From a candidate division WWE3 bacterium (GTDB lineage: Bacteria; Bdellovibrionota; UBA1018; UBA923), in NCBI GenBank assembly GCA_038231515.1, contig JBBRLF010000001.1:1-55390 (forward strand): 55,390 bases of DNA, in the 5' to 3' direction. Shown here piece by piece: positions 14,693 to 35,397 of the stretch. The notes below the pieces were generated by a model. The model made no database searches, was not told the DNA's origin, and saw only the letters and a program-made list of their open reading frames with translations. How positions within the stretch are numbered: position 1 is the first letter of the stretch; the number at the start of each line of letters is the position of its first letter. The position numbers and the translations under genes were made by a program.

Positions 14693-14695
14693 CCG

Positions 14696-15098: not shown

Positions 15099-15126
15099 AC
15101 CCACCGCCCTGCAAGTTCAGCTGCAT

Positions 15127-15351: not shown

Positions 15352-15376
15352 CCCGAATGAATGCTAGGAACTCTCT

Positions 15377-16102
15377 ATGAATAATCTGAAAGCCCTGTTT
15401 TATTCGGTGTTCTGCCTGGGAGCCATGCTCCCCGGATTTTGTCATGCTGAGGTCGCGTCAAAGTGGACACTCACCGCGGTTCAGGATGCCCCCTGCAGGT
15501 CATGGAATCCGAACAACGGAACCTGCCTGAAATGGGATACCTATCTTCAGTATTTCCCGGACTACGACAGCATGCTGTCGGGCTTCCAGCTCTACAGCGA
15601 GATCGTATCCAATCTCGACTCTCGAATCGCGGGGCTCGAAATAAAACTCCGTCCGAACACTCCACCGAACTCCACGACGATTCCGCAATGGTCGATCCAG
15701 TCGGTGGAAGCCTTGCCGTGTCGGATGTGGCGAGGAAAGACCGGGACCTGCCAAACTTGGGACGCCTACGCGCAGCACTTCCCTGACTTCACGACCGCTG
15801 CGACCGTCTTTCAACTCTACGCGGCGGCCATCAATGCGTTGGGAGATCGTGTGGCCTCGCTCGAGCTGATCGTCAATCCGGCGGGAACGCCGAATCCTGG
15901 TCATGTCGCGGATGTCGCATTGGTCGCGGTCGAAACGGCTCCCTGCACGAGTTGGGCGGTCCAAAACGGTCGCTGCGGGAGGGCTTATACCCATTTGCAG
16001 CACTACCCGGGCTATACCAGCGCGGTCGAGGCGTTCAACGCGGGTTCGACGGCGGTGACCGCGATCGACGGACGCGTCAGGACAATCGAAAATCTGCCGT
16101 AG
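15377..16102 (+). CDS. Exported protein built of three ~75-aa tandem repeats, each with a C-x9-C pair (unknown family)
   Basis: Signal peptide MNNLKALFYSVFCLGAMLPGFCHA. Repeats start at about residues 30, 105 and 180, with the shared pattern W-x-[LI]-x-x-V-[EQ]-x-x-PC-x-x-W-x5-G-x-C-x-x-W/A-D/Y-x-Y/H-x-Q-[HY]-[FY]-P-[DG]-[FY]...R-[IV]-x-x-[LI]-E. Confidence 0.75.
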   Translation: MNNLKALFYSVFCLGAMLPGFCHAEVASKWTLTAVQDAPCRSWNPNNGTCLKWDTYLQYFPDYDSMLSGFQLYSEIVSNLDSRIAGLEIKLRPNTPPNSTTIPQWSIQSVEALPCRMWRGKTGTCQTWDAYAQHFPDFTTAATVFQLYAAAINALGDRVASLELIVNPAGTPNPGHVADVALVAVETAPCTSWAVQNGRCGRAYTHLQHYPGYTSAVEAFNAGSTAVTAIDGRVRTIENLP

Positions 16103-16141
16103 ATTGAGAGAATAAGCCGCGTCCTGATCGGTTGAGTCGCG

Positions 16142-21131: not shown

Positions 21132-24100
21132 TTATGCAGCCTGAGCTAGCCTTTCCACGGGCCGGTTCAGCCTGGCAAACCAAAACCACGACACCAGCGC
21201 CACACCCAGAATCCACAGCACTGCTTTAGGCCCTGCCCCTGGATAAGGTTGCGTGACGAGTGTGCGAACCTCGCCAAGAATCACCTGACCCGCCGTAAGC
21301 GGAATAAGAATGGACACCGAGGTTCGCGCCACCAGCTCGTAAATCAGCCAAAGCACCGCGGTCACTCCCACCGCGGTCACGAGCCACTCGCCAAGAGCGC
21401 TCTCGGTTCTGAACGCCGCCACCGTCAAGCCGACAACGACAAAGAACAGAGTGCGCAGGCGATTACTGGTAAAACGCCGCTCGACGAATAAAAACAGCAG
21501 CAGCAAGAATCCGAGTTTTCCCATGAACGGCACCAGGCCAGCTATCGGGTCGAGCCAGGGAAAATACGAAGAAGCGCCGCCGACTCCGGGCCAGTTCGGA
21601 TGCGCCAGCTGAGTCAGCCGTGCAGTGACCGCGCCCAGGGCCGCGAGGATAAAGCCACCGGCATAGCCAACCCAGGGGTTCAACCCCGTGCGCCAGATCG
21701 AGGAGTCGAGACTCACCGGCACCCGTCCAAGACCCATCGCTAAAAGGGTGGAACCAAGAAGTGTGAAAAGCGTGCCTTTGATCACCAGTGCCAGTACTTG
21801 GGTGGCCCACGGCTGCGCAGTATTGAACTGCGCCAGCTCGGCCCCATAATCATTGAGCTGCAGCAAAATACCGGAAACGATTAGAAGCACAAACGACCGG
21901 ACAAACATTCGCTGATCAAAGCGTCCCAGGGTCCAGTCTCGAAAGGTAAGCACCCATATCCAGATGGCGAGCGCACCCAGCAAAGCGCTGCCTATCATTT
22001 TAATCACGTTCAGCACGGTGGCGCGCGCACGTTCCGCGCGCAGCCAGGTCTCGGGTACAAAAACATAGCCGCGATATCCGACTACCTCGTCGCCGGCAAT
22101 TTTGACGGCAAGACGGGCTTCACCCTGCTTGACTGGGGCGTTGGGATCTTTCCAGACGAAAACCCAGTCACGCCGGGCCGGCAGCTGATCCTGACTGCTC
22201 GAAATTTCCACGAGCTCGGACGCCTTCACGCTGAAGTGCTCGCGCAGCGCGCGCACGGCCAGCACTCGCGCGGCCCGCTCGGAAAGCGCTGGCCCCGGGC
22301 GCGTCTCGGGCAGCTCGTGTCTGACGCGTTCTATCTCACCTGAGCCCAGAATAAAGACCTGGTGCTCCTCGGCTCTTTCTGCAACGTCGCCGTCAAAACG
22401 TACAAACCGCACCAGCCAATGCGGCGGCTCAAGATAACGGCTCAGAATTTTTGCGTAAACCTCGGGGCCCGAGGTGCGCCACACAAACAGATCCTCTTCG
22501 CCTGCCGCGCCCTGAGACACGGCAAGTGCCTGCCAGTCGGCACCGAGGTGCACGCCCTGGGCCGCCAAGGTCGCGCGCGCCAGCGCCACGGCTTGCGGGC
22601 GGTCCAGCTTCAAACCCGGCGCGTCTGTTTTAAATGGAATGAGTACTGCCCAAACCACCAAGGCGACAACACCCGCGCCGATCAGAATTTTTTGACTCAC
22701 TCGAGACAAGGCCGGATAGCCGGGCTGCCTCGCGGTACTCACCGTCGCAGCAGTGATAGCGGTCAACGCCACTGCGGGTTTCCAGCCGCCATTGTAGAGT
22801 GCCGCCGGCAGCTTGCGCCAGGCGCCGGCACGCAGTCTAGCAAGGAGCGTGATCCAAAGCGGCAGGCCACTCAAGGCGACGACGATAACCCGACTTACCG
22901 CTGCCGAGGTGCCCGCCGAAAGAAAAAGCGGCATGGCAAACAAAGTCACGTCGTAAGTATAATGCATCACCATTGCAGGCAGGAGCCCGTACAGCAGAAA
23001 CATTGCACCAAAGAGCGTCGAGGGCACGAGCAGCTCGATCAGCCGCGCATATGAAGGCTGAGTGGGATAGTCGGCATGGGCCGCTCCGAATACCAAAGCC
23101 TGTAAGACAAATGCGCAGGCAATCCAGACTCCACGCTTGCCATAACGATTGCCCAGCAGCGCTGCCGCCGCCAGCGGCACCGCGCGAAAAAGACATTCCT
23201 CCCAGATGCCGGCGTGCAGTGAGTTGGCAATCGAGGTGAGCCAGGGAAAAGTAGTGGCCAGCGCGTCGGGATGAAAGAGCAGCTCAGAGGGATTCCACCA
23301 GCCCAGACGTTGAGAACCCACGATATAAATCCAGGTGGCCCAGGCCAGATGAAAGCCCACCAGCAGATACGCCCCCACGACGCGCCCGGCGATCTGCCGG
23401 GAGGGCGCAGCCTGGCGCGAAAAGACGCGCCACAGCTGAGGATGCCGTGGAAACGCAATGCGGCTCATTGACTCTGCCGCCATCAAAGCAATGACGACGA
23501 TAAAGAAATCGAAAAACGACATCAGCAGCGCATTGGCCGCATGTCCCACCACGAAAGCCTGCGTGGAGATTGCCGTATCGTAGTCCATCCAGTCGAGCGG
23601 CAGCCGATTAAGCGCTTCCAGAAATTGCAGAATGGATATCACGGCCGCAACGGCCACCGGCATGCGCCACAACACCTCGCGGCGCCGTGCCAGATAGAAA
23701 AGTCCAAACCCACAAAATCCGATTCCGTACAGCAACACGACCACCGCGCTGGCCAGGGCCGAGATGCTGCTATTGGCCGAGCGCATCTGGGCGAAGCGGC
23801 GAAAAAAGGCCTCGGGCACTTTGATGAAAGGATTAATTTCGGTGAGTCGACTACCAGTAACACCCAGCGCGAGCCGGTACCGGCCCAGCCCCACGTGCTG
23901 GTCATCGCGTTCATACATGAAGCTGTGATCGATGCGGCCGTTCTTACGCGTTTCGGCCGACTGCTCAATCAGGTGATAAGGCTTGAGGTCAACGCCCCAA
24001 AAACCGCGAGCCTCTTTTTCGGCCAGTGCGCGGGCCTGGGTGGCACTTAGAGCTGCGCCCGGGTCGTCTTCGGATATTTTTTCTGCAAGGCCATAGAAGC

Positions 24101-24491
24101 GACCCTCGGGGGTAAACCGCACTCGCGACTCATTGACCACGCCCTGAGCAAAGTGCCGCACCTCCCACGTGTATGGCGAGTAGATGCCGGCCTTGAGCAC
24201 CTCTTTCAAAGCCCGGGGACCGCCCGCTTCGAGTTCGATGAAGTTTTGCGTTGGCGAATCGACCTGAAAAGCCACCGCCTGCTGATAACCCGCCTGGGGA
24301 GATAAGCCCCGCTGAAGGGCAAACTCGGAGGTCTTGCTCAGTGCGGCTTTGCGGTCCATCTTGATATCAAGATTGATAAACGGAAAGGCGCGGTCGAAAT
24401 TTTTCCAGGCGTAAAAAACGCAGGCGAGAAAAAACAATGCGTTGAGCATCCAGAAAATCGGTTTGCGCGTGAATCCCATGCCGCTCAGCAT
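21132..24491 (-). CDS. Very large polytopic membrane protein containing a CPBP (CAAX/Abi-type) intramembrane metalloprotease core
   Basis: The CPBP motifs EECLFRAVPL, FGAAH and MVMHYTYD lie within residues ~430-530. These are flanked by two ~200-aa soluble (probably periplasmic) regions and many additional TM helices. 1119 aa. Confidence 0.75.
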   Translation of the reverse strand: MLSGMGFTRKPIFWMLNALFFLACVFYAWKNFDRAFPFINLDIKMDRKAALSKTSEFALQRGLSPQAGYQQAVAFQVDSPTQNFIELEAGGPRALKEVLKAGIYSPYTWEVRHFAQGVVNESRVRFTPEGRFYGLAEKISEDDPGAALSATQARALAEKEARGFWGVDLKPYHLIEQSAETRKNGRIDHSFMYERDDQHVGLGRYRLALGVTGSRLTEINPFIKVPEAFFRRFAQMRSANSSISALASAVVVLLYGIGFCGFGLFYLARRREVLWRMPVAVAAVISILQFLEALNRLPLDWMDYDTAISTQAFVVGHAANALLMSFFDFFIVVIALMAAESMSRIAFPRHPQLWRVFSRQAAPSRQIAGRVVGAYLLVGFHLAWATWIYIVGSQRLGWWNPSELLFHPDALATTFPWLTSIANSLHAGIWEECLFRAVPLAAAALLGNRYGKRGVWIACAFVLQALVFGAAHADYPTQPSYARLIELLVPSTLFGAMFLLYGLLPAMVMHYTYDVTLFAMPLFLSAGTSAAVSRVIVVALSGLPLWITLLARLRAGAWRKLPAALYNGGWKPAVALTAITAATVSTARQPGYPALSRVSQKILIGAGVVALVVWAVLIPFKTDAPGLKLDRPQAVALARATLAAQGVHLGADWQALAVSQGAAGEEDLFVWRTSGPEVYAKILSRYLEPPHWLVRFVRFDGDVAERAEEHQVFILGSGEIERVRHELPETRPGPALSERAARVLAVRALREHFSVKASELVEISSSQDQLPARRDWVFVWKDPNAPVKQGEARLAVKIAGDEVVGYRGYVFVPETWLRAERARATVLNVIKMIGSALLGALAIWIWVLTFRDWTLGRFDQRMFVRSFVLLIVSGILLQLNDYGAELAQFNTAQPWATQVLALVIKGTLFTLLGSTLLAMGLGRVPVSLDSSIWRTGLNPWVGYAGGFILAALGAVTARLTQLAHPNWPGVGGASSYFPWLDPIAGLVPFMGKLGFLLLLFLFVERRFTSNRLRTLFFVVVGLTVAAFRTESALGEWLVTAVGVTAVLWLIYELVARTSVSILIPLTAGQVILGEVRTLVTQPYPGAGPKAVLWILGVALVSWFWFARLNRPVERLAQAA

Positions 24492-24539: not shown

Positions 24540-25139
24540 TTAATGCGCTTTCTGGGAACCGACTTCTTTGTGGAATTCTTCAATGCCCTTCGCCCTCACG
24601 CCTCGACCCTTGTAATGGGAATAGAGAATACAATTCTGCTGTCTGAGCGAATAGCGCGCTGCCGTCTTCTTCAAGTTACCTTGCGTGAACTCGACGGGCA
24701 CGTCGGCCCGCATGGGCTGCAAGGAATCCGAATCGCCAATCTTGATCAAATTGCAGTCTTTGATTCCTGTTTCGACGAAGATAAAGGTGGCACCCACGGT
24801 GGACAGCTTTTGAAAAGTACCGGGTACCGGCATCTGCACCTCTGTACCGACCGGAAAAACCCCTGCCTTCGGAGTCGTCATCGTGCACTCCTTGCCGCGA
24901 GTCGTAGGATTGTAGTCAGGGCAATCCACCGAGTACGTATAGCAGGTCAGGGCCGAGGTGGCGCGATAGCTGATTTTGGGAATGACCTTGGCCATCTGGC
25001 CATAATTGGGCAGGGTCTCGTAGTGATTGGCCTCGTCGGAATCCGCCGTCTCGCAAACCGCGGGCACTTTCGCCTGCGCCAGGCCCGGCGCCAGCAGCGC
25101 GCAAATGATCATCGTTGAAAACGACAGAAGTTTGGTCAT
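24540..25139 (-). CDS. Hypothetical exported Cys-containing protein
   Basis: Signal peptide MTKLLSFSTMIICALLAPGLAQA. RBS is GGGGGGA. No family recognised. Confidence 0.6.
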   Translation of the reverse strand: MTKLLSFSTMIICALLAPGLAQAKVPAVCETADSDEANHYETLPNYGQMAKVIPKISYRATSALTCYTYSVDCPDYNPTTRGKECTMTTPKAGVFPVGTEVQMPVPGTFQKLSTVGATFIFVETGIKDCNLIKIGDSDSLQPMRADVPVEFTQGNLKKTAARYSLRQQNCILYSHYKGRGVRAKGIEEFHKEVGSQKAH

Positions 25140-25318: not shown

Positions 25319-25864
25319 TTATCGAATGCCGCGCCGAAGTCGCGAACGTACCAGCCAACCCAGCTCCAGGCTGCCCAACCCACCCAGGAGCGAGCCCGCC
25401 ACCCAGGCTACGCCCAGCGTGACCATCATCTCGCCACCCAGGCAGGCAAAAACACCGCTCGATAAGGTGGCCATCACGCCCAGCTGCAAAAGTCTTGAAC
25501 GCCGAATGACCCGAATCTCACCTGGTCTGAGAATCAGACTGCCTAGCAGGCTGCTGGCGCCCAGAAATACCGAGCCGCAGCCCAGCATGCAGGCGGTTTC
25601 GCCATAGCGCATGAAAAGCGTCATTAAACCCATGCCAGGAAAAATGGAAATTCCAAACTGCGGGCACATCGCAAGCACCAACGCGCCAACCAGCAGCTGA
25701 ATAAGCCCAAGCTTGGCAAATACCCACGAAGCCTCGGGGTTAAGATCATGGTGAACGGCGTCGAAGACCTTCGCCGAAACGTGCAATGGTGGAACGCGCT
25801 CTTCGACAGACGCGAAGCATTCAAAATCCCGGGCCCAGTCCTGGACGCTTTGTTTCTTGCTCAT
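25319..25864 (-). CDS. Putative multipass membrane anti-sigma factor (NrsF-like architecture)
   Basis: 4-nt overlap with the ECF sigma gene upstream. A ~45-aa cytoplasmic N-terminus is followed by 4-5 TM helices carrying Cys residues (LAMCPQFG, ETACMLGCGS, FACLGG). The assignment rests on context, not on sequence identity. Confidence 0.5.
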   Translation of the reverse strand: MSKKQSVQDWARDFECFASVEERVPPLHVSAKVFDAVHHDLNPEASWVFAKLGLIQLLVGALVLAMCPQFGISIFPGMGLMTLFMRYGETACMLGCGSVFLGASSLLGSLILRPGEIRVIRRSRLLQLGVMATLSSGVFACLGGEMMVTLGVAWVAGSLLGGLGSLELGWLVRSRLRRGIR

Positions 25865-26385
25865 AATACGGCCCTCAACTTCTTTACGGCACGGCTCACG
25901 AGCTGCCGCGCATTCATGGGTGAGGTCTCAAGCTTTTTGGCGATTTCTTCAAACGAAAGATCCTGCCCGTAACGCAGCTCGATGGCCTTGCGCTGCGCTG
26001 GCTGAAGTCCGGCCAGGCTGGGCATTTCACTCGACTGCTCAGGTTCGTGTTCGGGGGCTACGGCGCCGTCCACGGCCTCGGTATCTAGCTTCTCACGAAT
26101 ACGCCCGGCTTTACGCAGGTGATCAACCATCACGCCGCGCGTGACCGTGAAGAGCCAGGGAATAAACGGAAAGGTCGTATCGTAGCTCAAGCGACTTTTA
26201 TGCAGCTTCATGAAGGTGGCTTGAAAAACGTCATCCGCCATTGCCTTGTCCCTCAGGCTGTTCACCAGAAAGCCATAAACCCGGCTCGAGTGCCGCGCGT
26301 ACAGCTGGGCAAAAGCCGGCTCGTCGTCTTGCTGGTAAAGAGCCATCAGCTCCTCGTCAGATAAGTTATCCATTGACCCATCCAC
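25861..26385 (-). CDS. ECF-type RNA polymerase sigma-70 family factor
   Basis: Region 2 (FAQLYARHSSRVYGFLVNSLRDKAMADDVFQATFMKLHK...PWLFTVTRGVMVDHLRK) and region 4 (LQPAQRKAIELRYGQDLSFEEIAKKLETSPMNARQLVSRAVKKLR). The start is either the GTG at 26385 or the ATG at 26373. Confidence 0.9.
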   Translation of the reverse strand: MDGSMDNLSDEELMALYQQDDEPAFAQLYARHSSRVYGFLVNSLRDKAMADDVFQATFMKLHKSRLSYDTTFPFIPWLFTVTRGVMVDHLRKAGRIREKLDTEAVDGAVAPEHEPEQSSEMPSLAGLQPAQRKAIELRYGQDLSFEEIAKKLETSPMNARQLVSRAVKKLRAVL

Positions 26386-26390
26386 TAGTG

Positions 26391-26419
26391 GTTACGCTCA
26401 ACCCTTAGCATTTGTGACA
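26391..26419 (-). promoter_or_regulatory. ECF-type promoter candidate for the sigma/anti-sigma operon (TGTCACAAA-N14-CGTAAC)
   Basis: The minus strand reads TGTCACAAA tgctaagggttgag CGTAAC, ending about 6 nt before the GTG at 26385. It mirrors the plus-strand motif at 26438-26466. Confidence 0.45.
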
Positions 26420-26437: not shown

Positions 26438-26466
26438 TGTCACAAAGTAGCAGGTAACAGCGTATC
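26438..26466 (+). promoter_or_regulatory. ECF-type promoter candidate for the Cys-rich peptide gene (TGTCACAAA-N14-CGTATC)
   Basis: The plus strand reads TGTCACAAA gtagcaggtaacag CGTATC. A leader of about 17 nt with RBS GGGAGG follows before the ATG at 26490. Confidence 0.45.
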
Positions 26467-26489
26467 CTTATAAAAGGGAGGATCTATCC

Positions 26490-26693
26490 ATGCGTTTTCC
26501 ATTGATTCTAGCGGCGATGGTGGCTCTGGCGAGCCCGATTGCCATGGCCGGTAGCCCTGCCAAGTGCACCTGCACCAAGAAGTGTCAGATCGAGTGTAAA
26601 GCTGGCCACCCCAAGTCTTGCAAGTGCAAGCACTGCGATTGCGCCAAGGGCGGCAAGTGCGATTCCGGCTGCAGCAACGAAGATAAAGCTTAA
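26490..26693 (+). CDS. Small exported Cys/Lys-rich metallothionein-like peptide (67-aa precursor, ~47-aa mature)
   Basis: Strong RBS (GGGAGG). Sec signal MRFPLILAAMVALASPIAMA|G. The mature part is GSPAKCTCTKKCQIECKAGHPKSCKCKHCDCAKGGKCDSGCSNEDKA, with 10 Cys in CxC, CxxxC and CxxCxC spacing. A terminator lies downstream. Confidence 0.7.
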   Translation: MRFPLILAAMVALASPIAMAGSPAKCTCTKKCQIECKAGHPKSCKCKHCDCAKGGKCDSGCSNEDKA

Positions 26694-26753
26694 GCTCCGT
26701 CAGCAACTCCGACAGAAAAGTAATTCACTTTTTTCGAGACTCTGAATTTGAAG

Positions 26754-26795
26754 CGCGGCTCTGGGACACCTCTCAGAGCCGCGTTTTTGCTTTTG
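26754..26795 (+). terminator. Rho-independent terminator after the Cys-rich peptide gene
   Basis: CGCGGCTCTG (26754-63) / CAGAGCCGCG (26774-83), followed by TTTTTGCTTTT. Confidence 0.75.
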
Positions 26796-26856
26796 TTACA
26801 CAAAAAGGCTCCTTTCTTCAGTGTCATTATAGCCGCGCTATGTCATAGACGTATTC

Positions 26857-27498
26857 ATGAATTTAACCGCAATCGTCCTGTCCACGTTCCTGAGCTTGAG
26901 TTCCGCCCACGCCGGCACTGTTCAATACGTCATCCAAAAAGACAGTTTGGCTCCGGACAGAAACGGCAAGTGCGAAAGTCCCGACGTTTGCGGCATTCGC
27001 TTTGACGTTGGATTCTCGCTGGGCCGGCATCAGGGATTTGCCAGCGCCGCAACCGCCGACGCTTCGGCTAAAATTCAGAGCGAGCCCTTTGAAGTAAGCG
27101 CCGCCGAATTCAGCGTACCACTCGCGGCCATGGATACTTGGAATGGGCTGCGCAACAAGCACATGCGCAATGCCTTTGAAGCCGACAAGTTTCCGAACAT
27201 CACTTTCAAATTCAGCTCGGCCGCAGCCACCACCGAACCTCTCTCGGAAACCCCTCTCGCAGTTGAACTCAAGGGCCTCTGGCAGATGCACGGTGTAACC
27301 AGAGAAATCGTGTTGCCCGTCAAACTTGAAAAAGTGCGCGGAACCGACGTCGTTCATGTGCAGGGCGATTTTTTCCTGAGTCTCAAAGATTATAACGTCA
27401 AGGTGCCATCGTTTCTGGGCCTCAAAGTGGAAGACCGAGTCAGCGTTCATCTGAACTTCAACTTGAAGCCGGGTACTCCGAGACTGGCGAATGAATAA
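26857..27498 (+). CDS. YceI-like periplasmic (polyisoprenoid-binding family) protein
   Basis: Signal peptide present. YceI-like pattern NAFEADKFPNITFKFS...LKGLWQMHGVTREIVLPVKLE...VQGDFFLSLKDYNVKVP. Confidence 0.75.
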   Translation: MNLTAIVLSTFLSLSSAHAGTVQYVIQKDSLAPDRNGKCESPDVCGIRFDVGFSLGRHQGFASAATADASAKIQSEPFEVSAAEFSVPLAAMDTWNGLRNKHMRNAFEADKFPNITFKFSSAAATTEPLSETPLAVELKGLWQMHGVTREIVLPVKLEKVRGTDVVHVQGDFFLSLKDYNVKVPSFLGLKVEDRVSVHLNFNLKPGTPRLANE

Positions 27499-28153
27499 GT
27501 TCATCGGCATCTTTTGTTTCATGTCGCTGGTGAGCGGCTGCGCCTTTCGCCACGATAAAAACTCAGACGCCGCCAGTACCCAGACCAGCGGGGTCGATGC
27601 CAGTACGGGGCTACTCGACAACACCTCGGGCTTCAGTCACATCCAGAAAAAGATTCTCAACAATCGCTGCCTGAGCTGCCATGGCGGCAGACAGCAACCT
27701 TACCTGGGTACCTACGCGGCGGTGAAGTCCAACGCCGATGCGATTCGCAACGCGGTTTTTGTCAAAAAAAGCATGCCTAAAAGCTCAAGTCTCAGTCGAG
27801 CCGAGGGCAGACTTCTGCGCATGTGGCTCGACGCTGGCGCTCCCGAGCAGGCGCCGGTCGAGGAACCCATTCCAGATCCTGTGCCCAACTTGCCCGGACA
27901 TCCGGTGCGTTGGAGCGTGCTGGCCGAGCGAGTACTTATTCCCAAATGTCTCGCCTGCCATACGGGTGAAAATCCCAAGGGAAAAGTCGACCTGAGTTCC
28001 CTCCAAAGTGTTCGTCCCTTGTCGGGCGCGCTGCTTTTTACGACGCTCAGTACGATCGACAACGAGATGGTGATGCCGCCGCTGCCCGCCGAACTTACGA
28101 CTGACGAAAAAGAACTCGTCAGCAACTGGGTCATCGACGGAATGCACGACTAG
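27491..28153 (+). CDS. Dihaem c-type cytochrome-like lipoprotein
   Basis: Lipobox LVSGC. Two CxxCH motifs (CLSCH, CLACH), each in a repeated ~90-aa module. 8-nt overlap with the YceI-like gene. Confidence 0.7.
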   Translation: MNKFIGIFCFMSLVSGCAFRHDKNSDAASTQTSGVDASTGLLDNTSGFSHIQKKILNNRCLSCHGGRQQPYLGTYAAVKSNADAIRNAVFVKKSMPKSSSLSRAEGRLLRMWLDAGAPEQAPVEEPIPDPVPNLPGHPVRWSVLAERVLIPKCLACHTGENPKGKVDLSSLQSVRPLSGALLFTTLSTIDNEMVMPPLPAELTTDEKELVSNWVIDGMHD

Positions 28154-30442: not shown

Positions 30443-33400
30443 GTGGTTAGCGTCCTGTCATTGGCCGTGTCGAGCGCGGGCTGCCTGTTTGGCAACTCGC
30501 CGCCGCCAGCGCTGGCTCTGGGTGGAACGATTGGCGGGTTTCAAAGCCAATGCGTTCAGGAAATTCCACAGACCGCCCGAGACTTCTTCACCGGCCAGCA
30601 GCAAGACGATGCCAAGATTGCCGGCATGTGGGACTGCGGCATTTCGGCGCTCGTCGAGTTCAAGACGTTGGTGCGCGGCAGTCAGCCCGATCTGATTGCG
30701 GGCCGGGATCTGGTTTTATTTCTCAATCGTTTTTTGAAGGAGGGCGACCGCGTCAGCGACGCGCTTCGCGTGCAGGCGATGAAGCTGAAAGTCGCAGTCG
30801 TCGGTGGCGATAGCGAAAACATTACGCCCGCCCAGCTGGACCAGACCGTTGAGCTGCTTAATATTTTGAAAGCCAACTCGCTTGCGCTCAAAAAACTACT
30901 GCCGATGAATCCGGCGCACCTGGGCGCTCTGCCCGAAGGCGAACTCCAGCCGCTGCTCGCCGGTCTGGCCTCGTTTGGAGAGGAGCTGGGCGGTTTCATA
31001 TCTCAAAGAGGCGGCAGCCTTTCCTTTGACGATGCGACGGCGTTTCTGGTTGAGTTTGAAAAAACCTACGTTGGCGCCAACTCGCCGGGTAATGCCATTA
31101 CCTGGCTGCGCGCCGAGATGCCCGCACTGCGTGTGCTGAAGTCGATCGTGGCGGGCGGCACGGCCGATGCCGTTGCGCAGTCAGAATGGCGCTCAACGCT
31201 CGCGATCGCCACCAAGCTCTTCGGCACATTTTTGTACTTCGAAAATCAAAACGCCAGCCAGGGCGCCGACTGGTTTACGACAAAGGGATTTGAGGCGCTG
31301 GCCAGAATCGCGAGCCGCGGCGTGGACAATCTCAAAGACGTTGGTGTCAATCACCCGGGCGGCATCGTGCCCGCCGAAAAAGTGCAGCAGCTGATTGCCA
31401 CTCTCAAAGATCTTAAAGGCCATCCCGATCCCGATGCCACGGTAGCCGCTTCAACCGCCCAGCTCGCCGACATCGTAGCCAAGGTGCTGCTCGCAAAGCA
31501 GGCCATTCTGGGCGGCGCTATCTATGAGCTGGATTTGAATCGCGCTGCCGCCATCAAGACCTTCATCGACCAGATTCACGCGCCGGCCCTGGCACTCTAC
31601 CAGGTTCTGGCCAAGGATGACCTCGAGCGCGCCACCGACACGCAGTTTAACGCCTGGATTGCCGAGTACGACGCCGCAGCCGGGCCCGCCATTGCTGCCC
31701 TGACCGCGCTTCGTGCCGGTGCCTCGGCTGAAAAGTTCGCAAACTTTTCGGCGCTGACTCAGGCTACGGCTCCGCTTTTTCTGATCGATTCATTCACGAA
31801 GTCAGTGGAAGACACCATTGCCGAGGCTCGTGGTGCGCGGGCCGTGCTGCTTGGCCCGCCCTACGACGGCCTGGCGGCCACTGAATGGCAACCCTTGCTG
31901 GAACAAGCCGTCGCGACGGCGCGCCTTTATCTGCAGTCTCGTCACCGGCCAGCGACCCCGCTTGATGGCTCGGTTACGCCTGGCCAGCTGACCTACTGGT
32001 GGACCTTACTCAACGGCGGAGCCTCCGTGCTTGACCGCGCGCTACAGGCACGCCAGCCAACCGCTACGCCCGAGCCAGGCGCCGTGCTGGCCTCAGAGGT
32101 GCTACTCTTGCTCAACGCCCTTCCAGAAAACTTCGCGCACAAGGCCGAGCTCGTGGGCCTGGTGCCGGATGCGCTGGCCATTAAGGCAACACTTTTCGGT
32201 GGCGACAGCACACGTGTGACTCCAACCGACCTCGCACATCTGCGCAGATTTTTGGCCGCCGCCGAAGCTCAGTCTTATCTGCTGCGCCGTTATCTTCCAC
32301 TCGATCTGACCCAGCTCGAAACGTGGAGTAACGAGCGGGTCGACGAGCTGGCCACCACACTTCAGACGGCGCTCAGCAGCCTTGCCGGTGCAATCGGCTC
32401 GGGCGGCACCGCGATCTATCCCCTCGCCTCGCTTGACGCTCTGGTAAGTAAACTCGCAGGCTTCGTCAATAACCCCAGCCTCATCGCAGATATGCGCGAC
32501 GCAATTCCGGTGCTGGGCGGCTTCAAAAGCGTGGCCGTCAGCGAGCCCTTCGATTCAATCGCGGGTCCGCAGTGGAACACGCTGCTGGGCGCCACTGGAA
32601 TCTGGGCCGCGCTGGGCCTGCGTCTTTATCATTACACCAAACAGGCGCCCGACATTTACTCAGGCGCACCTCTGGAACGTCTCAACACGCTTGCGGACGC
32701 TGCCCTGGTCCAGCTTCGCGTCTCGGCCGCCAGCCGCACTCCGAGTGAGATTAACTTTCTTGATTTTGATCATCTGCTTGATGCCGTCTATGCACTTGCC
32801 GCCAAGCACGGCACCTCGCCCACCATGCGCGTCACCACGCTCGAAGCCTTTCTGCGACCCGCCATTCGCAGACTTGCGGGCGGCGCAAATTTCGGTGCTA
32901 CCGGCCGCAAGTCCAATGGTTTTTCGGCGGTCACGATTGACCTCACGCGCGCTCGCCTGAGCCGCTGGGTACGCAATCAGCGCATTTTCGAGCAAGCTTT
33001 TGTCGACCTGGGCCAGGACGAGGCCGCCCTGCGCGGAATTGGTTTTGAGCGCGAGCTGCTGCTGAATAAACTCAAAGAGACCAAGGGCTCTGAGGACGAT
33101 GTGGCGTTGCTACAGGCTTTTCGTCCGCTTTTTCTAAATCAAGACCCGAGCTTCACTTTTCTTTACGATGACGCGCGTGCGCTTCGATACTCGTTTAACG
33201 ACCTGTCGAAGAAGAATCTCTACTTCATCATGAACAAGGCCTTTCTCGAAGGGTATGCCGAAGACCAGGCGCGCGCCAACGCTGGCATGCAGGTTACCGA
33301 GCCCGAGATGCAGCGACTAGTGGTCGATGTACACGACGTAATCACCGACATGCGCTTCGGGCCGCAAGATCAGCCTGACGCCGCTCTGGCCCAGCAGCGC

Positions 33401-34210
33401 TTTCTGGAGGCCAATACGTTTACGTCAGTCGCCAACGGCGACGGCTTCTACGACCTTTACGAAGGCCTGGAGTACGTGGGCTTTCTGGGCTCGAGCAAAG
33501 CGCTGGCCCGCCAAAGCTTTGCCGACGCCCTTGCGCTGTGCCCGCACAGCGGCAGCGACGTCTATGGCCGCAACAACATCGCCGCGCAGTGCTTTCGAGA
33601 CCGATTCTTTGACACCGCGTTGATGCGCCAATATCTGGGCAAGGCCATGCCGGCGCTGGTTGCGGCTTTCGAACAGCTGACCCCGGCAGGCCAAAAAGAC
33701 TTCAAGATCAATCTTGAAACCGCCGCACGCCACGGCGTCTACAGCGAAGAGCCGATCAGCGAGTTCGAAGGCGAAAACTTTGTCACTCTGCTGAGCTATA
33801 TCGAGTCACTCTTCAAGCGCTTCGACGTCGACGGCCACGGCCAGCTCACCATGCCGCAGGCCCGCGCCGTTTTTCCGATCGTCTGCCAAAAGCTAAAAGA
33901 CGTCAGCAAACTTCCTGGCACCTGCATCCCACGCTGGGGCATGTTGGAATCGCTCTTCGGCCATCTGCTGGTTTACGGCGCGCCACCTGCGAAAGCCGGT
34001 CCGACAATCGGCGACAAGATCGTCGCAGCCGTTTCCTTCCTGGGCTGGATGTTCAAATGGGCCACCATCCGCGACTGTCACCACTGCAGCTACCGTGTCG
34101 ACCGCAGCCGCGTACTTCAAATCGTGGAGTCCCTGGCCAGCCCAGCAAACGCGGGCGCCCTGAGCTTCGCAGACGAACGAGGCCTCTGGGGAGAACTAGG
34201 CACCGAATGA
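30443..34210 (+). CDS. Large (1255 aa) helical lipoprotein with internal ~465-aa duplication and EF-hand-like loop (unknown family)
   Basis: GTG start. Lipobox LAVSSAGC. Duplicated modules begin near 30800 and 32200 (GGDSENITPAQL... and GGDSTRVTPTDL...). DVDGHGQLTMPQ at 33824-33859. Lies 16 nt after the OMP gene. Confidence 0.7.
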   Translation: MVSVLSLAVSSAGCLFGNSPPPALALGGTIGGFQSQCVQEIPQTARDFFTGQQQDDAKIAGMWDCGISALVEFKTLVRGSQPDLIAGRDLVLFLNRFLKEGDRVSDALRVQAMKLKVAVVGGDSENITPAQLDQTVELLNILKANSLALKKLLPMNPAHLGALPEGELQPLLAGLASFGEELGGFISQRGGSLSFDDATAFLVEFEKTYVGANSPGNAITWLRAEMPALRVLKSIVAGGTADAVAQSEWRSTLAIATKLFGTFLYFENQNASQGADWFTTKGFEALARIASRGVDNLKDVGVNHPGGIVPAEKVQQLIATLKDLKGHPDPDATVAASTAQLADIVAKVLLAKQAILGGAIYELDLNRAAAIKTFIDQIHAPALALYQVLAKDDLERATDTQFNAWIAEYDAAAGPAIAALTALRAGASAEKFANFSALTQATAPLFLIDSFTKSVEDTIAEARGARAVLLGPPYDGLAATEWQPLLEQAVATARLYLQSRHRPATPLDGSVTPGQLTYWWTLLNGGASVLDRALQARQPTATPEPGAVLASEVLLLLNALPENFAHKAELVGLVPDALAIKATLFGGDSTRVTPTDLAHLRRFLAAAEAQSYLLRRYLPLDLTQLETWSNERVDELATTLQTALSSLAGAIGSGGTAIYPLASLDALVSKLAGFVNNPSLIADMRDAIPVLGGFKSVAVSEPFDSIAGPQWNTLLGATGIWAALGLRLYHYTKQAPDIYSGAPLERLNTLADAALVQLRVSAASRTPSEINFLDFDHLLDAVYALAAKHGTSPTMRVTTLEAFLRPAIRRLAGGANFGATGRKSNGFSAVTIDLTRARLSRWVRNQRIFEQAFVDLGQDEAALRGIGFERELLLNKLKETKGSEDDVALLQAFRPLFLNQDPSFTFLYDDARALRYSFNDLSKKNLYFIMNKAFLEGYAEDQARANAGMQVTEPEMQRLVVDVHDVITDMRFGPQDQPDAALAQQRFLEANTFTSVANGDGFYDLYEGLEYVGFLGSSKALARQSFADALALCPHSGSDVYGRNNIAAQCFRDRFFDTALMRQYLGKAMPALVAAFEQLTPAGQKDFKINLETAARHGVYSEEPISEFEGENFVTLLSYIESLFKRFDVDGHGQLTMPQARAVFPIVCQKLKDVSKLPGTCIPRWGMLESLFGHLLVYGAPPAKAGPTIGDKIVAAVSFLGWMFKWATIRDCHHCSYRVDRSRVLQIVESLASPANAGALSFADERGLWGELGTE

Positions 34211-35397
34211 GTCCCCGACATCTACAACCCGCGCTTATTGCCTTCGGAATGCTGCTGGCGTCGACAGCCACGGCAGCCTTCATCGATCTGCATGCCCACC
34301 CGTTCATGGATGACGGCCTGGGCACGCTGTTTCACGGCAAGTTCGAAGGCGAGCTGCGGGCCACCGACTGGCGCGCGAATCTCTATTCCCAGATCAATAT
34401 CGAATCGCTGGAAAAATCCAACCTGGGACTCGTCGTTGTTTCGCTCTACGCCCATCCCATCGCGTCCAACGGACGGCGCGACTCGATTCGTCGGCAGCTC
34501 GCACGGGCCCACGCGTTCGTCAAAACCCATCCCCACTGGATCATCGCCACCAGCCCGCTTGAAGCCCGGCGCGCGCGCGCCAATGGAAAAGGAGTACTGG
34601 TGCTGGCGCTCGAAGGAGCCTCGGGCATTCTTGAGACTGAAGAAGACCTGCGCGAATTTGTCGACGAGCAGGGCCTGCGCATTGTCACCTTTCTGCACCT
34701 GACCGACGATCATCTGGGTGGGGCCGCATTTTTTCGCTCGTTTCGCGGCTTTATCATGTCGCCGATTTCGTGGTTTCTGCAGATGTTTTCGCCGACCGTG
34801 GACGAGTACGACGCCAAACTCAATCGCAATGGGCTGACCGCCGATGGAGCCGACCTTGCGCGCCGGCTCATCAAACGGAAAGTGTGGCTCGATCTGGCGC
34901 ATGCCTCGGATAAAGCGCAGGCGGGACTACTACCCCTGCTCGCGGGGCATCAGCCCCTGCTGTACACGCACACGGTGTTGCGCAAATACCTGCACTCCGA
35001 GCGCGGCATTACCGAGGCGCAGCTTGAGCAGGTTAAAAAAACTTCTGGAATCGTGGGCCTGATGCCCAGCGAAGAAATGCTCGAAGGCACCCCCGCAAGC
35101 TGTGCCGACGGAATTCACGAGCTGGCAGCGCAGTTCGCGATAGTAGCGCAGCACATTGGCGCTGCCTCAACCCAGATTGGGAGCGACTTCAATGGTGGCA
35201 TCAATCATCTCATGCCGCCCAAGTGCGCCACGGGCACCGCGCTGGACGCGCAAGGCCTTTGGAATATCGGACAAAGCGGGCAGCTGTGGCTGACGCTCAA
35301 GGCGCTGGGCGTACCCTGGCCCCAAGCGACCACCGCAGCCGACGACGAGTTTATTGCCACCTTTCTGGCGGCCTGGTCAAAGGTTACTGGGACTTGA
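34207..35397 (+). CDS. Exported membrane-dipeptidase (peptidase M19)-like metallohydrolase
   Basis: The track ORF (34057) is over-extended. The ATG at 34207 forms an ATGA overlap with the upstream stop and gives the signal peptide MSPRHLQPALIAFGMLLASTATAA. M19-like landmarks are IDLHAHP, LALEGASG, DLAHASD, LYTHT and IGSDFNGG. Confidence 0.65.
   Translation: MSPRHLQPALIAFGMLLASTATAAFIDLHAHPFMDDGLGTLFHGKFEGELRATDWRANLYSQINIESLEKSNLGLVVVSLYAHPIASNGRRDSIRRQLARAHAFVKTHPHWIIATSPLEARRARANGKGVLVLALEGASGILETEEDLREFVDEQGLRIVTFLHLTDDHLGGAAFFRSFRGFIMSPISWFLQMFSPTVDEYDAKLNRNGLTADGADLARRLIKRKVWLDLAHASDKAQAGLLPLLAGHQPLLYTHTVLRKYLHSERGITEAQLEQVKKTSGIVGLMPSEEMLEGTPASCADGIHELAAQFAIVAQHIGAASTQIGSDFNGGINHLMPPKCATGTALDAQGLWNIGQSGQLWLTLKALGVPWPQATTAADDEFIATFLAAWSKVTGT

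Follow-up and report, generated by a model that had tools for sequence, protein, structure and literature searches.

A family of small, Sec-exported, cysteine-rich peptides linked to an ECF sigma factor in Bdellovibrionota-type bacteria: candidate periplasmic metallothionein-like buffers

What might a bacterium gain from exporting a peptide of 47 residues, ten of them cysteines, and why should its gene lie back to back with that of an extracytoplasmic function (ECF) sigma factor? Bacterial metallothioneins are, to our knowledge, rare and so far cytoplasmic, and the periplasmic copper-buffering peptides that we know of, the bufferins and oxazolins, need dedicated iron enzymes that turn Cys residues into heterocycles. 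The original prediction for this locus, made from sequence alone, was of an exported metallothionein-like peptide under ECF control. We analysed the gene, its neighbours and their relatives computationally, starting from a stretch of 55,390 nucleotides, here called the window. The features of the locus are collected in Table 1.

Table 1. Features of the peptide locus, in window coordinates
Feature	Coordinates	Strand	Details
Precursor gene of the Cys-rich peptide	26490..26693	+	ORF from ATG to TAA, 67 aa plus stop; orthologues, family, dN/dS
Sec-type signal peptide MRFPLILAAMVALASPIAMA, residues 1-20	26490..26549	+	Cleavage between AMA and G; n/h/c layout read from sequence
Mature peptide GSPAKCTCTKKCQIECKAGHPKSCKCKHCDCAKGGKCDSGCSNEDKA, 47 aa, 10 Cys, 10 Lys, 2 His	26550..26690	+	Translation, residue counts
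Ribosome-binding site GGGAGG	26476..26481	+	8 nt upstream of ATG
Intrinsic terminator of the peptide gene	26750..26797	+	Hairpin at 26750-26787 with a stem of 17 bp and a 4-nt loop, followed by a T-run
Predicted ECF-type promoter of the peptide gene, TGTCACAAA-N14-CGTA	26438..26464	+	-35 at 26438-26446, -10 at 26461-26464
Predicted ECF-type promoter of the sigma/anti-sigma operon, same motif	26393..26419	-	Auto-regulation proposed
ECF sigma factor, 174 aa as listed	25861..26385	-	GTG start 26385; Pfam and NCBIfam matches
Putative anti-sigma factor/sensor, 181 aa	25319..25864	-	4-bp overlap of its start with the end of the sigma gene
Secreted 199-aa protein with 7 Cys	24540..25139	-	180-bp gap downstream of anti-sigma gene

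The gene for the exported Cys-rich peptide is confirmed as genuine. Its dN/dS of 0.05–0.26 (50 codons, six pairwise comparisons) indicates a real coding sequence, orthologues at 62–70% identity keep all ten Cys, and the ribosome-binding region GGAGGATCTATCCATG recurs unchanged at L001, an orthologous locus. The strong ribosome-binding site and dedicated terminator that had been predicted both hold up, with the terminator-containing segment from 26694 to 26800 folding at -39 kcal/mol (z = -5.0 relative to shuffled sequences). A sigma-70 consensus scan found no meaningful promoter. The precursor reads MRFPLILAAMVALASPIAMA followed by GSPAKCTCTKKCQIECKAGHPKSCKCKHCDCAKGGKCDSGCSNEDKA, the junction being the predicted signal peptidase cut. 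What had been called a textbook signal peptide is of the Sec type, with n, h and c regions and an AxA site kept in all family members and the Ala at -1 more than 90% conserved in an alignment of 49 members. Readings of the precursor as a lipoprotein and as a Tat substrate were rejected, as it lacks a lipobox and a twin-arginine motif, respectively. An ORF of 88 aa on the opposite strand (26440-26706) was dismissed as an artefact.

The Cys residues of the window peptide follow the framework C-x-C-x3-C-x3-C-x7-C-x-C-x2-C-x-C-x5-C-x3-C (spacings 1-3-3-7-1-2-1-5-3). The predicted length and Cys and His counts of the mature part were correct, and the Lys count, given as 9, is 10. Cys makes up 21% of the mature peptide, which carries a net charge of +5. 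Hydrophobic and aromatic residues (FWYLIV) amount to ~4% of the mature part across the family and, judged by composition, the mature peptide is devoid of a hydrophobic core. As originally proposed, the peptide is metallothionein-like, and its composition suits the operational description of a metallothionein: low mass, more than 15% Cys, CxC and CxxC motifs, and a scarcity of hydrophobic and aromatic residues.

The family came to light when 1.84 billion representative proteins were scanned exhaustively with HMMER, which added 46 small proteins that have a signal peptide and share the Cys framework; a word-indexed protein search returned only two proteins with the single peptide as query and 11 with the family profile. 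Two HMMER matches, P0005 (2886 aa) and P0044 (647 aa), were dropped as unrelated repeat proteins. The original prediction had made conservation in relatives a test of the ORF, and the result is a family of ~55 members, seen only in Bdellovibrionota-type metagenome-assembled genomes and metagenomes, that share a near-invariant spacing of 1-3-3-7-1-2-1-5-4. Five Cys (C1, C2, C4, C5 and C6) are present in 49/49 aligned members, C3, C7, C8 and C9 in 48/49, and C10 in 42/49. Members carry between one and nine His, and HGKC-x-HH tails are frequent. Where they are labelled at all they are labelled “hypothetical”, and often they are not called as genes. Our search for family loci used a 12-member subset and a single pattern, C[KE]CK[EHA]CDC, which led to three genome and three metagenome loci, so the family is under-sampled. 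The window peptide has no match in Pfam or NCBIfam at E <= 1 and none in the plasmid search. With no Pfam, NCBIfam or PDB relative detected, the family is unannotated at the sequence level, in keeping with the prediction of an undescribed peptide.

So many Cys residues in a secreted product raise the question of disulfides. The peptide might be a disulfide-knotted mini-protein with a role unrelated to metals, for example a cationic peptide with antimicrobial activity or directed at prey, an inhibitor of proteases, or a structural cross-linker in the envelope of a predatory bacterium, its ECF linkage then reflecting envelope stress. Bdellovibrionota are predators, and secreted effectors are plausible in them. 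The even count of ten Cys in 80% of members and the cationic charge of the window peptide are compatible with this, as are the only PDB matches of the family profile, the disulfide-rich inhibitors haemadin and locust serine protease inhibitor (non-significant, E 0.4–0.9), and weak compositional matches of 10/49 members to the Cys-rich exosporium protein CdeC. However, 11 of 55 members have nine Cys, an odd number, through single losses at C3, C7, C8, C9 or C10, a pattern at odds with a fold that requires every Cys to be in a disulfide. Net charge ranges from -5 to +6 across the family, so cationicity is not conserved. Despite an input of 49 sequences AF2 gave no confident fold, only one short helix in an otherwise coiled, almost structureless model (pLDDT 62), as would be expected of an apo-metallothionein. 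Immunity or export genes linked to the peptide were absent, and neither the His-rich tails nor the copper genes found near relatives (below) suit such a role, which we regard as improbable.

The divergent neighbour of the peptide gene lies across a gap of 104 bp, measured to the GTG at 26385. ORFs and Pfam domains bear out both this predicted distance and the identity of the neighbour as an ECF sigma operon with a membrane partner. With the predicted -10 element of the sigma promoter ending at 26393, translation of the sigma factor more probably begins at an ATG located at 26373. The protein matches Sigma70_r2 (E = 4.5e-15), Sigma70_r4 (1.9e-13) and Sigma70_ECF (3.3e-5), with hits to PF04542, PF04545, PF08281 and PF07638 and to TIGR02937 (1.1e-25). 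It consists of sigma-70 regions 2 and 4 only, with a membrane-partner gene downstream, which is the definition of an ECF sigma factor. Its best matches among annotated plasmids, Rhizobium ECFs with 32% identity that are paired with VWA-domain proteins, were uninformative as to its ECF group.

The membrane partner is predicted to have two N-terminal cytoplasmic helices and four transmembrane (TM) helices (topology prediction, AF2 pLDDT 87). The periplasmic side is predicted to carry a conserved Met-rich loop as well as three invariant Cys, which follow the pattern CPQFG ... GE-x2-C-x3-CG (C67-P-Q-F-G, C92 and C96-G). Its 83 homologues are all hypothetical proteins without a Pfam domain; in a Pfam scan of 42 of them nothing matched, including PF06532 (NrsF/DUF1109) in 0/42 at E <= 1, and PDB sequence and fold searches with the protein gave no relative. 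NrsF/DUF1109 proteins have six TM helices, in contrast to the four here, and NrsF senses through two conserved Cys (PMC3511200). Judged on these searches the putative membrane sensor is a new family with an invariant Cys triad, not NrsF/DUF1109, and its position and topology suggest an anti-sigma factor.

The original prediction had proposed asking whether homologues recur beside this ECF group, and they do: wherever the flanks of a non-redundant locus could be read (11/11), the peptide gene is next to the same sigma gene, and the membrane protein is also present if the contig reaches far enough. These loci range from 36% to 57% GC and show three arrangements, namely divergent genes, a single peptide-sigma-antisigma operon (L017) and a sigma-antisigma-peptide order in which the peptide has its own motif (L007). 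This linkage, obligate as seen from the peptide, would also be expected if the peptide were part of the switch, a periplasmic co-sensor that binds metal, contacts the membrane protein and triggers release of the sigma factor. Periplasmic metal sensors that act on ECF anti-sigma factors are known, for example CnrX in the CnrYXH system of Cupriavidus, and the L017 operon begins with the peptide gene. Yet the peptide is missing from three of six sigma/anti-sigma modules fetched independently of it (L010, L012 and L014), implying that the switch works without it, and in most loci it has its own predicted sigma-dependent promoter and a terminator, as is typical of a regulon output. A CnrX-like role thus has, in our estimation, a low probability.

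Comparative alignment of the related loci yielded a promoter motif, (T)GTCACAAA-N14-CGTA(T), with 23 instances located before sigma operons and peptide genes and with unconserved spacers. The window contains two sites against 0.10 expected, a count reached in 0/100 shuffles. Together the two promoters form an inverted repeat, TTTGTGACA...TGTCACAAA; this was considered as a repressor operator and rejected, since each half has its own correctly spaced CGTA on its own strand and the distance between the halves varies from locus to locus. Peptide gene and sigma operon carry the same motif in all lineages, which places ECF control on firmer ground than adjacency alone. The predicted ECF control of the peptide is thus well supported by comparative sequence evidence. 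The Caulobacter sigmaF promoter, GTAACC-N16-CGAA (PMC3511200), and the motif here, written as GTCACA-N16-CGTA, have identical spacing and agree at 4/6 positions of the -35 and 3/4 of the -10 element, a suggestive resemblance in promoter architecture. Linkage and motif, like the gene, its family and its export signal, were established in silico.

In relatives whose module lacks the peptide, genes in the same operon or behind the same motif encode an exported HMA protein (NCBIfam CopZ 4.9e-9, MerP 1.2e-4), a multicopper oxidase and a CopM/DUF305 protein (1.2e-11), and an ArsR/SmtB gene is a neighbour. At L015 a nine-Cys family member lies between a multicopper oxidase and the sigma gene. This copper context, itself an in silico observation, lends the metal link independent support. 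No copper gene stands beside the module in the window, and the relatives that give the metal link share 37–46% sigma identity.

The original prediction had left metal buffering and redox buffering both possible, and the peptide may instead be a sacrificial periplasmic thiol that the ECF factor induces as a sink for oxidants such as hypochlorite, other reactive species of oxygen or chlorine, or oxidation catalysed by copper. Its Cys would then be oxidised and essential envelope proteins spared. Cys is the residue most reactive to HOCl, and the invariant Cys triad of the sensor could equally be a redox switch. A precedent is MrpX of the Azospira suillum SigF/NrsF regulon, a periplasmic Met-rich peptide that is poorly conserved and natively unfolded (PMC4436054). 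In both systems an ECF sigma/anti-sigma pair adjoins a gene for a small Sec-exported peptide in which charged residues and one oxidisable sulfur amino acid predominate, a single intergenic region contains divergent promoters that depend on the sigma factor (predicted here), and the logic is that of a protective sink. The systems also differ. MrpX responds to reactive chlorine and is recycled by the co-regulated YedYZ reductase, whereas no linked reductase of YedY, Msr or DsbD-like type was found in any locus of our module. In contrast to the poorly conserved, unfolded MrpX, the Cys-rich family retains its near-invariant Cys framework across deep divergence, suggesting that it forms a specific cluster or fold and does not simply supply thiols in bulk. 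The accessory genes of relatives encode copper and soft-metal proteins, not oxidant defence, and a scavenging role leaves the His-rich tails unexplained. We consider it an unlikely function for this family.

Copper, an ECF factor and an exported Cys peptide are also the elements of the bufferin systems, in which copper-induced, SigF/NrsF-controlled peptides are exported by Sec (PMC11626156). The background on sigmaF/NrsF and bufferins given in the original prediction agrees with the published work (PMC11626156, PMC3511200). Bufferins (BufA1/DUF2282 and BufA2/BUF_6/12Cys), which occur in Caulobacter and many other bacteria (PMC11626156, PMC12452194), and the window peptide are both small, Cys-containing and equipped with a Sec signal. 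In both cases an ECF sigma gene and that of a multi-TM, Cys-bearing anti-sigma factor (putative here) adjoin the peptide gene, and buffering of excess copper is the proposed role. Bufferins accumulate in the periplasm, where the window peptide is predicted to reside. The two nonetheless differ: bufferins have four Cys in 60–100 residues as against ten in ~36 for the family, and the ligands of bufferins are thiooxazoles, whereas those of the window peptide would be plain thiolates. As originally stated, no MNIO or DUF2063 gene is adjacent. MNIO, DUF2063 and DoxX were absent from the 48 ORFs of at least 145 aa scanned in the window and, by precomputed Pfam annotation, from the flanks of related loci, and DUF2282 from the window and every related locus; from the absence of MNIO, DUF2063 and DUF2282 we conclude that the peptide is not a bufferin. 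The bufferin-family HMM searches that had been suggested agree, with 0/49 members matching DUF2282 or BufA models (Pfam/NCBIfam, E <= 1). This lack of modifying enzymes nearby is again an in silico result.

Oxazolins offer another comparison. The oxazolin HvfA/Buf_EGKCG (PMC11252979, PMC12452194) and our family share a Sec signal and Gly-Lys-Cys motifs; x-GKC-x occurs in 29/49 members, and many end in TGKCEHGKCEH, where the GKC units are spaced as GKC-x2-GKC, just as they are in AEGKCGEGKCG, the oxazolin repeat that MNIO modifies. Copper binding has been measured for the oxazolin and is proposed for the window peptide. However, the exact EGKCG motif is found in 0/49 members, the 17-residue repeats are absent, and the window peptide has a single GKC, in GGKCDSGCS. 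The N-terminal eight-Cys block of the family (CxC-x3-C-x3-C...CxCxxCxC) has no counterpart in HvfA, the NCBIfam HvfA model NF050188 finds one weak match among 49 members (E = 9.6e-4), and family loci have no linked MNIO or partner gene.

These likenesses bear on whether the peptide could be a RiPP precursor, a distant, unrecognised cousin of bufferins and oxazolins, some of whose Cys are converted into thiooxazoles (or oxazolone/thioamide groups) before Sec export by an MNIO enzyme and partner encoded at another locus. For an appreciable fraction of bufferin precursors the gene has no MNIO gene beside it (PMC12452194), bufferins and oxazolins are likewise Sec-signal Cys peptides, with bufferins linked to ECF factors and copper, and the GKC motifs and the single HvfA match would fit. 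The model and motif searches above speak against such an origin, as does the absence of MNIO, DUF2063 and DoxX from the scanned window ORFs and the flanks of related loci. The conserved partner is a sigma module rather than an enzyme, and most of the conserved Cys form CxC and CxxC clusters that resemble no known MNIO substrate. Modification by enzymes from elsewhere in the genome accordingly strikes us as having only a small chance of being correct.

Among unmodified systems, the bacterial metallothioneins SmtA/BmtA and MymT resemble the window peptide in low mass, very high Cys content and the absence of an aromatic core. Both would be expected to fold only around metal ions, with His as an auxiliary ligand, and SmtA and the window peptide have a CxCxxCxC block in common. 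In SmtA this block reads CACEPCLC, in the window peptide CKCKHCDC. However, the known bacterial metallothioneins are cytoplasmic and the family here has a conserved, cleavable Sec signal, and metallothioneins are regulated by SmtB/ArsR-type or other cytoplasmic metal sensors rather than by an ECF sigma factor, as predicted here. Neither the window peptide nor any of the 49 members matched PF02069, and the family profile found neither SmtA (1JJD) nor any other metallothionein chain in the PDB at E <= 1. Sub-threshold, compositional matches to the eukaryotic metallothionein PF12749 occurred in 4/49 members. A literature search for the phrase “periplasmic metallothionein” found no use of it, and nothing relevant turned up on metallothionein in Bdellovibrionota or on copper and ECF sigma factors in Bdellovibrio.

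That thiolate-Cu(I) clusters are possible outside the cytoplasm follows from Csp1, an exported Cys-thiolate Cu(I) store built as a four-helix bundle (PMC7558416). Csp1 and, as we propose, the window peptide would hold Cu(I) on many Cys thiolates after export. The two otherwise differ: Csp1 is a pre-folded bundle of ~120 aa, assembles into tetramers and leaves the cytoplasm through Tat, whereas the window peptide has 47 aa, is predicted to be essentially unstructured and carries a Sec signal without a twin arginine. No Csp1-type protein was found among PDB sequence matches to the peptide profile.

Those parts of the original prediction that sequence analysis can address held up, save for the Lys count. 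Taken together, we hypothesize that the ECF factor induces the peptide, which would act unmodified in the periplasm as a metallothionein-like buffer for soft metals, probably copper, a reading that we regard as about evenly balanced between right and wrong. In this reading the locus is a three-gene stress module of a Bdellovibrionota-type bacterium, made up of ECF sigma factor, 4-TM anti-sigma/sensor and divergent gene for a Sec-exported, Cys/Lys-rich peptide. At rest, the two cytoplasmic helices at the N terminus of the membrane protein would keep the sigma factor bound. The signal would be thiophilic, with a soft metal the likeliest (Cu(I)/Cu(II), or another such as Ag, Cd or Hg) and a thiol oxidant a possibility; arriving at the periplasmic face, it would act on the invariant Cys triad and the Met-rich loop and set the sigma factor free. 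This would then transcribe from the two back-to-back promoters, (T)GTCACAAA-N14-CGTA, both its own operon, giving positive feedback, and the peptide gene. After Sec export and cleavage behind AMA, the 47-aa product would fold around metal ions through its ten thiolates (plus His in many relatives), lowering free periplasmic metal and damping the signal. The parts of this scheme that we infer are metal binding by the peptide, the anti-sigma function of the membrane protein, the nature of the signal and the state of the peptide's thiols once it is in the periplasm.

Several observations count against a buffer of this kind. The periplasm is oxidising, and DsbA would tend to turn ten thiols into disulfides, with which the predominantly even Cys count is compatible. 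The metal link comes from relatives rather than from the window itself, the membrane protein matches no known anti-sigma family, homology to metallothionein families was not detected beyond the sub-threshold PF12749 matches, and many tails share their GKC spacing with a repeat that is modified by MNIO. A bolder version of the hypothesis, to which we give somewhat less than an even chance, is that the peptide is the founding member of the first unmodified, Sec-exported, periplasmic metallothionein family, controlled by an undescribed ECF pair whose 4-TM anti-sigma factor senses soft metals directly through an invariant Cys3/Met site turned towards the periplasm, and that the system is an answer to copper stress in the envelope that is specific to Bdellovibrionota, parallel to and independent of the enzyme-dependent bufferins.

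If true, a plain ribosomal, Sec-exported metallothionein would mean that unmodified thiolate clusters are usable in an oxidising compartment, and would raise the question of how periplasmic thiols stay reduced or metal-loaded. For Bdellovibrionota, which live inside the periplasm of their prey, it would indicate an unexplored layer of metal defence. The peptides form a small, secreted, extremely Cys-rich family, previously unnamed and, with no Pfam or NCBIfam model, invisible to current annotation, and on present sequence evidence they are a good candidate for an unmodified periplasmic metal “sponge”. The circuit is compact, with one sigma factor, one small putative sensor of a new family with a Cys triad, and a two-promoter regulon with a clear motif, and could easily be rebuilt as a metal biosensor. 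The 47-aa peptide could also find use in engineered bacteria, capturing metal in their periplasm.

The secreted 199-aa protein encoded downstream of the anti-sigma gene matched no Pfam or NCBIfam family, and the gene at its position in L001 encodes an unrelated protein of 170 aa; its membership of the module is doubtful. The genes beside the module in the window also include those for a dihaem cytochrome c and a YceI-like protein.

The peptide gene encodes the 67-residue exported precursor described in the original prediction. Residues 1-20 show the n-, h- and c-region layout of a Sec signal peptide with cleavage between AMA and G, and the 47-residue mature part is Cys-dense (spacing 1-3-3-7-1-2-1-5-3) with a net charge of +5. 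The composition given earlier held for 10 Cys and 2 His, but there are 10 Lys rather than 9. The gene does have its own RBS and terminator: an RBS-like GGGAGG lies 8 nt upstream of the ATG, and the 107-nt region 3' of the gene (26694-26800), which includes the 17-bp hairpin, folds at -39 kcal/mol (z = -5.0). By prediction, it is monocistronic with a strong terminator. The divergent ECF sigma gene was also found at its expected distance, measured from the listed start, although the ATG at 26373 is the more probable start codon; at the other end, the stop codon shares 4 bp with the beginning of the gene for a 181-aa membrane protein. The earlier interpretation was supported in every testable respect, and its functional core is a prediction.

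Features of the peptide gene, its sigma-linked neighbours and the predicted layout of the membrane protein
Feature	Position	Strand	Details
Peptide ORF	26490-26693	+	ATG to TAA, 67 aa, MRFPLILAAMVALASPIAMAGSPAKCTCTKKCQIECKAGHPKSCKCKHCDCAKGGKCDSGCSNEDKA
Terminator of peptide gene	26750-26797	+	17-bp hairpin then T-run
ECF sigma gene	104 bp from peptide gene as listed	-	174 aa; Sigma70_r2, r4, ECF domains
Predicted ECF promoter of peptide gene	26438-26464	+	conserved motif
Predicted ECF promoter of sigma gene	26419-26393	-	same motif
Membrane protein, N-terminal cytoplasmic helices	residues 7-19, 27-41		predicted
Membrane protein, TM1	residues 45-66		predicted
Membrane protein, loop with short helix	residues 80-85		after TM1, predicted
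Membrane protein, TM2	residues 89-111		basic cytoplasmic loop after it, predicted
Membrane protein, TM3	residues 124-142		predicted
Membrane protein, TM4	residues 147-180		predicted

A word-indexed search with the peptide returned only itself and one relative (70% identity, all 10 Cys kept). Scanning 1.84 billion representatives exhaustively with a profile added 46 small proteins of 58-101 aa with a signal peptide in common, and counting loci from DNA scans the family has 55 members. Its framework is C-x-C-x3-C-x3-C-x7/8-C-x-C-x2-C-x-C-(A/K)K-x2/3-C-x3/4-C, to which many members add a His-rich tail, e.g. HGKCEHHEHD. Ten Cys are present in 44/55 members and nine in 11/55; columns C1, C2, C4, C5 and C6 are occupied in 49/49 sequences, C3, C7, C8 and C9 in 48/49, and C10 in 42/49. 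Across the 55 members there are 1-9 His each, hydrophobic or aromatic residues make up only ~4% of the mature part, and net charge ranges from -5 to +6. The dN/dS ratio is 0.18-0.26 for the window gene against orthologues and 0.05-0.15 among the orthologues themselves. Members carry no Pfam domain and no name other than 'hypothetical protein'. The peptide very probably belongs to a real family of exported peptides. Organism labels of peptide loci and membrane-protein homologues are Bdellovibrionota, Bacteriovoracaceae or Bdellovibrionales MAGs, or the older 'Deltaproteobacteria'.

The suggestion to look for small Cys-rich signal-peptide ORFs beside this type of ECF gene was borne out by a survey of homologous loci. 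A homologous ECF sigma gene adjoins the peptide gene at every non-redundant locus with readable flanks (the window and the related genomic or metagenomic loci L001, L003/6, L004, L005, L007, L008, L009, L015, L017/18 and L019), and the homologous membrane protein is present wherever the contig extends far enough. These loci span a genomic GC of 36% to 57% and include, at L019, the most divergent peptide, which lies at the family's E-value limit. The peptide and sigma genes are divergent at eight loci; L017 has peptide-sigma-antisigma in a single operon, L007 has the order sigma-antisigma-peptide, and neighbours outside the module vary. As judged from gene order, the conserved unit is a three-gene module of sigma factor, membrane protein and peptide, and the peptide is shown by its neighbourhood to be obligately linked to an ECF sigma factor and a predicted 4-TM protein bearing three Cys. 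Modules fetched through the anti-sigma protein contain the peptide in 3/6 cases. These bear on a role for the peptide as a CnrX-like co-sensor, which its linkage to the sigma module would suit and the three modules without it would not; we find this role highly doubtful.

ECF promoters are marked by an AAC/CAC-type -35 and a CGT-type -10 element. Alignment of the intergenic region with that of L001 revealed blocks of conservation, between which the spacers have diverged or been deleted, and each strand carries TGTCACAAA, 14 unconserved bases and CGTA. Within the 55-kb window TGTCAC-N16-18-CGTA occurs only at these two sites (0.10 expected; two or more in 0/100 shuffles), and allowing one mismatch yields no extra site. 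The motif lies upstream of both transcription units in all related loci; the 23 instances compiled give the consensus (T)GTCACAAA-N14-CGTA(T). Variants of it precede the peptide gene of L019 and, in a form whose spacer is shorter, the sigma gene of L010. The intergenic inverted repeat is readily read as two back-to-back -35 elements. ECF control of the peptide gene appears well supported because an auto-regulated sigma operon and one adjacent gene share a motif, a classic sign of a direct regulon member, and the gene is likely a direct target of the adjacent sigma factor. The experimentally defined Caulobacter sigmaF motif, GTAACC-N16-CGAA (PMC3511200), resembles GTCACA-N16-CGTA here in architecture and spacing.

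The 181-aa membrane protein has 83 homologues (38-74% identity), none of them annotated or assigned a Pfam domain; at E <= 1, 0/42 homologues matched NrsF/DUF1109 or another Pfam family, and the PDB contained no relative either by sequence or by fold (best Foldseek E 0.9). Position, operon structure and topology point to a putative anti-sigma factor. Invariant in the 42-sequence alignment are F17, C67-P-Q-F-G71, G79, G88, C92, C96-G97, W154 and G157, with a conserved Met-rich stretch, GMGLM..FM, between C67 and C92. Hydropathy, the positive-inside rule and the AF2 model (pLDDT 87, pTM 0.73) all agree on the tabulated layout, which would put all three invariant Cys, together with the Met-rich loop, at the points where TM1 and TM2 meet the periplasm. 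NrsF is likewise a Cys-bearing partner of an ECF sigma factor, and its two conserved Cys are needed for keeping sigmaF inactive (PMC3511200).

Bufferins and oxazolins, Cys peptides modified by MNIO enzymes, are ruled out: 0/49 members match DUF2282 or BufA, EGKCG is present in 0/49, and no MNIO, DUF2063 or DoxX gene was detected among scanned window ORFs or in any related locus, in keeping with the earlier remark that no MNIO or DUF2063 gene is adjacent. The SmtA/BmtA metallothionein family was rejected (no PF02069 match, no SmtA match in the PDB, and the peptide is exported), as was a Csp1-like storage protein (no Tat motif, no helical bundle in AF2). There is some likeness to oxazolins: x-GKC-x motifs occur in 29/49 members, many members end in TGKCEHGKCEH, where the GKC-x2-GKC spacing equals that in the oxazolin repeat AEGKCGEGKCG (PMC11252979), and one member matched the HvfA model (E = 9.6e-4); the window peptide holds just GGKCDSGCS. 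Possible explanations of this resemblance are convergence on a motif that binds copper, a remote common ancestor or, for some members, modification by an enzyme encoded elsewhere. That the peptide is a RiPP precursor modified elsewhere, for which the GKC motifs speak and the lack of nearby MNIO genes does not, seems unlikely.

The peptide's CxC and CxxC clusters, auxiliary His and lack of a hydrophobic core would fit folding around metal ions, as in metallothioneins (PMC7558416). So would its AF2 model, essentially structureless even with 49 sequences (pLDDT 62), and the loss of single Cys at different positions, which leaves 20% of members with an odd number of Cys. A disulfide-knotted effector or inhibitor would suit the members with ten Cys and sits poorly with odd counts; we consider it very unlikely.

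Gene context in relatives also points to metals. In L012/13 and L014 the operon runs on past the anti-sigma gene to genes for a 200-220-aa exported protein and, after it, an HMA protein that is also exported (GMVCAFCA; NCBIfam CopZ model 4.9e-9, MerP model 1.2e-4). The three further genes span L012:3504-4842 and L014:3543-4862; the first product is conserved (HPV..GVMSWNQ...NFMFHF), and the third gene encodes a membrane protein of 120 aa that has LLCCALP in TM1 and a C-x8/9-C pair. Neither matched a family model, but the CC motif of the latter is reminiscent of MerT, and the trio looks like a MerP/MerT-like soft-metal handling set under ECF control. Next in L014 is a multicopper oxidase, and a divergent motif copy there drives an operon ending in a CopM/DUF305 protein (1.2e-11). 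Behind that motif copy (L014:1077-2239(-)) and ahead of the CopM/DUF305 gene are two exported proteins without family match, one of 245 aa with 8 His and one of 138 aa with 9 His that ends in GGHAHH, possibly further periplasmic metal-binding outputs of the sigma factor. L012 is flanked by ArsR/SmtB, ArsC-like and MIP genes, and in L015 a 9-Cys family member has a multicopper oxidase on one side and the sigma gene on the other. Since relatives retrieved without reference to the peptide have copper genes in this operon frame, the peptide and the copper proteins seem to be alternative outputs of a common sensor-sigma chassis. Mobile-element genes adjoin the module in L015 (3699-6528, TraG/TrwB-type coupling protein and MqsA antitoxin) and L012 (5092-6280, recombinase and DUF6908 gene), so in some lineages integrative or conjugative elements may carry the module, whether or not it includes the peptide.

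We hypothesize that the membrane protein sequesters the sigma factor until its periplasmic Cys/Met site is hit by soft metals (most probably copper) or by thiol oxidants. The freed sigma factor would induce its own operon and the peptide gene, and the peptide would bind metal via thiolates in the periplasm, lowering the signal as negative feedback. We are evenly divided on this full model of an unmodified metal buffer, to which the oxidising periplasm is the main physical objection. Csp1 is a precedent for an exported thiolate-Cu(I) protein, but it is exported via Tat as a pre-folded bundle (PMC7558416) rather than as a Sec peptide. A sacrificial redox sink like MrpX, the Met-rich peptide of the Azospira SigF/NrsF regulon (PMC4436054), would sit well with the invariant Cys of the sensor and less well with the copper genes of relatives, and is improbable.

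An ECF-controlled periplasmic metal-buffering peptide is a concept known from bufferins, Cys peptides exported by Sec that belong to the sigmaF regulon, which copper induces, and act as periplasmic copper chelators (PMC11626156), and metallothioneins are already known. Our literature search found no paper with the phrase 'periplasmic metallothionein' and no description of this peptide family or the sensor. What appears new is a metallothionein-like family that is Sec-exported, seemingly unmodified and linked to a new putative anti-sigma family.

A secreted protein of 199 aa, with 7 Cys and without a family match (24540-25139(-)), is encoded on the same strand 180 bp downstream of the anti-sigma gene; the closest relative, L001, has an unrelated 170-aa protein at that position, so this gene probably falls outside the conserved module. 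Just beyond it, 21132-24491(-) encodes a very large polytopic membrane protein (1119 aa); an Rce1-like/CPBP intramembrane protease domain in its centre (PF02517, 1e-10) is the one domain recognised in it. Directly past the peptide terminator (26857-28153(+)) come two genes with an 8-bp overlap of their coding regions: one for a secreted YceI-like protein (PF04264, 5e-20), the other for a protein that has two CxxCH haem motifs and the domains Cytochrome_CBB3 and PSCyt1. Given the overlap they probably form one operon, and it is probably not in the ECF regulon because no ECF motif lies upstream. An RseP-type site-2 protease (Peptidase_M50, two PDZ domains; 49933-51642(-)) lies 24 kb from the module in a housekeeping cluster with uppS and cdsA; proteases of this type are the usual candidates for cutting ECF anti-sigma factors within the membrane, and it would be the candidate here if proteolysis controls the putative anti-sigma factor. 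The first 10 kb hold a flagellar cluster (1038-10388; fliK, fliJ, fliI, fliH, fliG, fliF and a rod protein), followed further on by trigger factor, asd, pssA/psd and tsaB genes; these genes show the window to be ordinary chromosome rather than an island or plasmid. A tRNA-Phe gene is at 14459-14534. Long runs of large ORFs at 11160-17524 and 30443-36712 (up to 1255 aa at 30443-34210) had no Pfam match at 1e-5, as is typical of poorly charted Bdellovibrionota proteomes.
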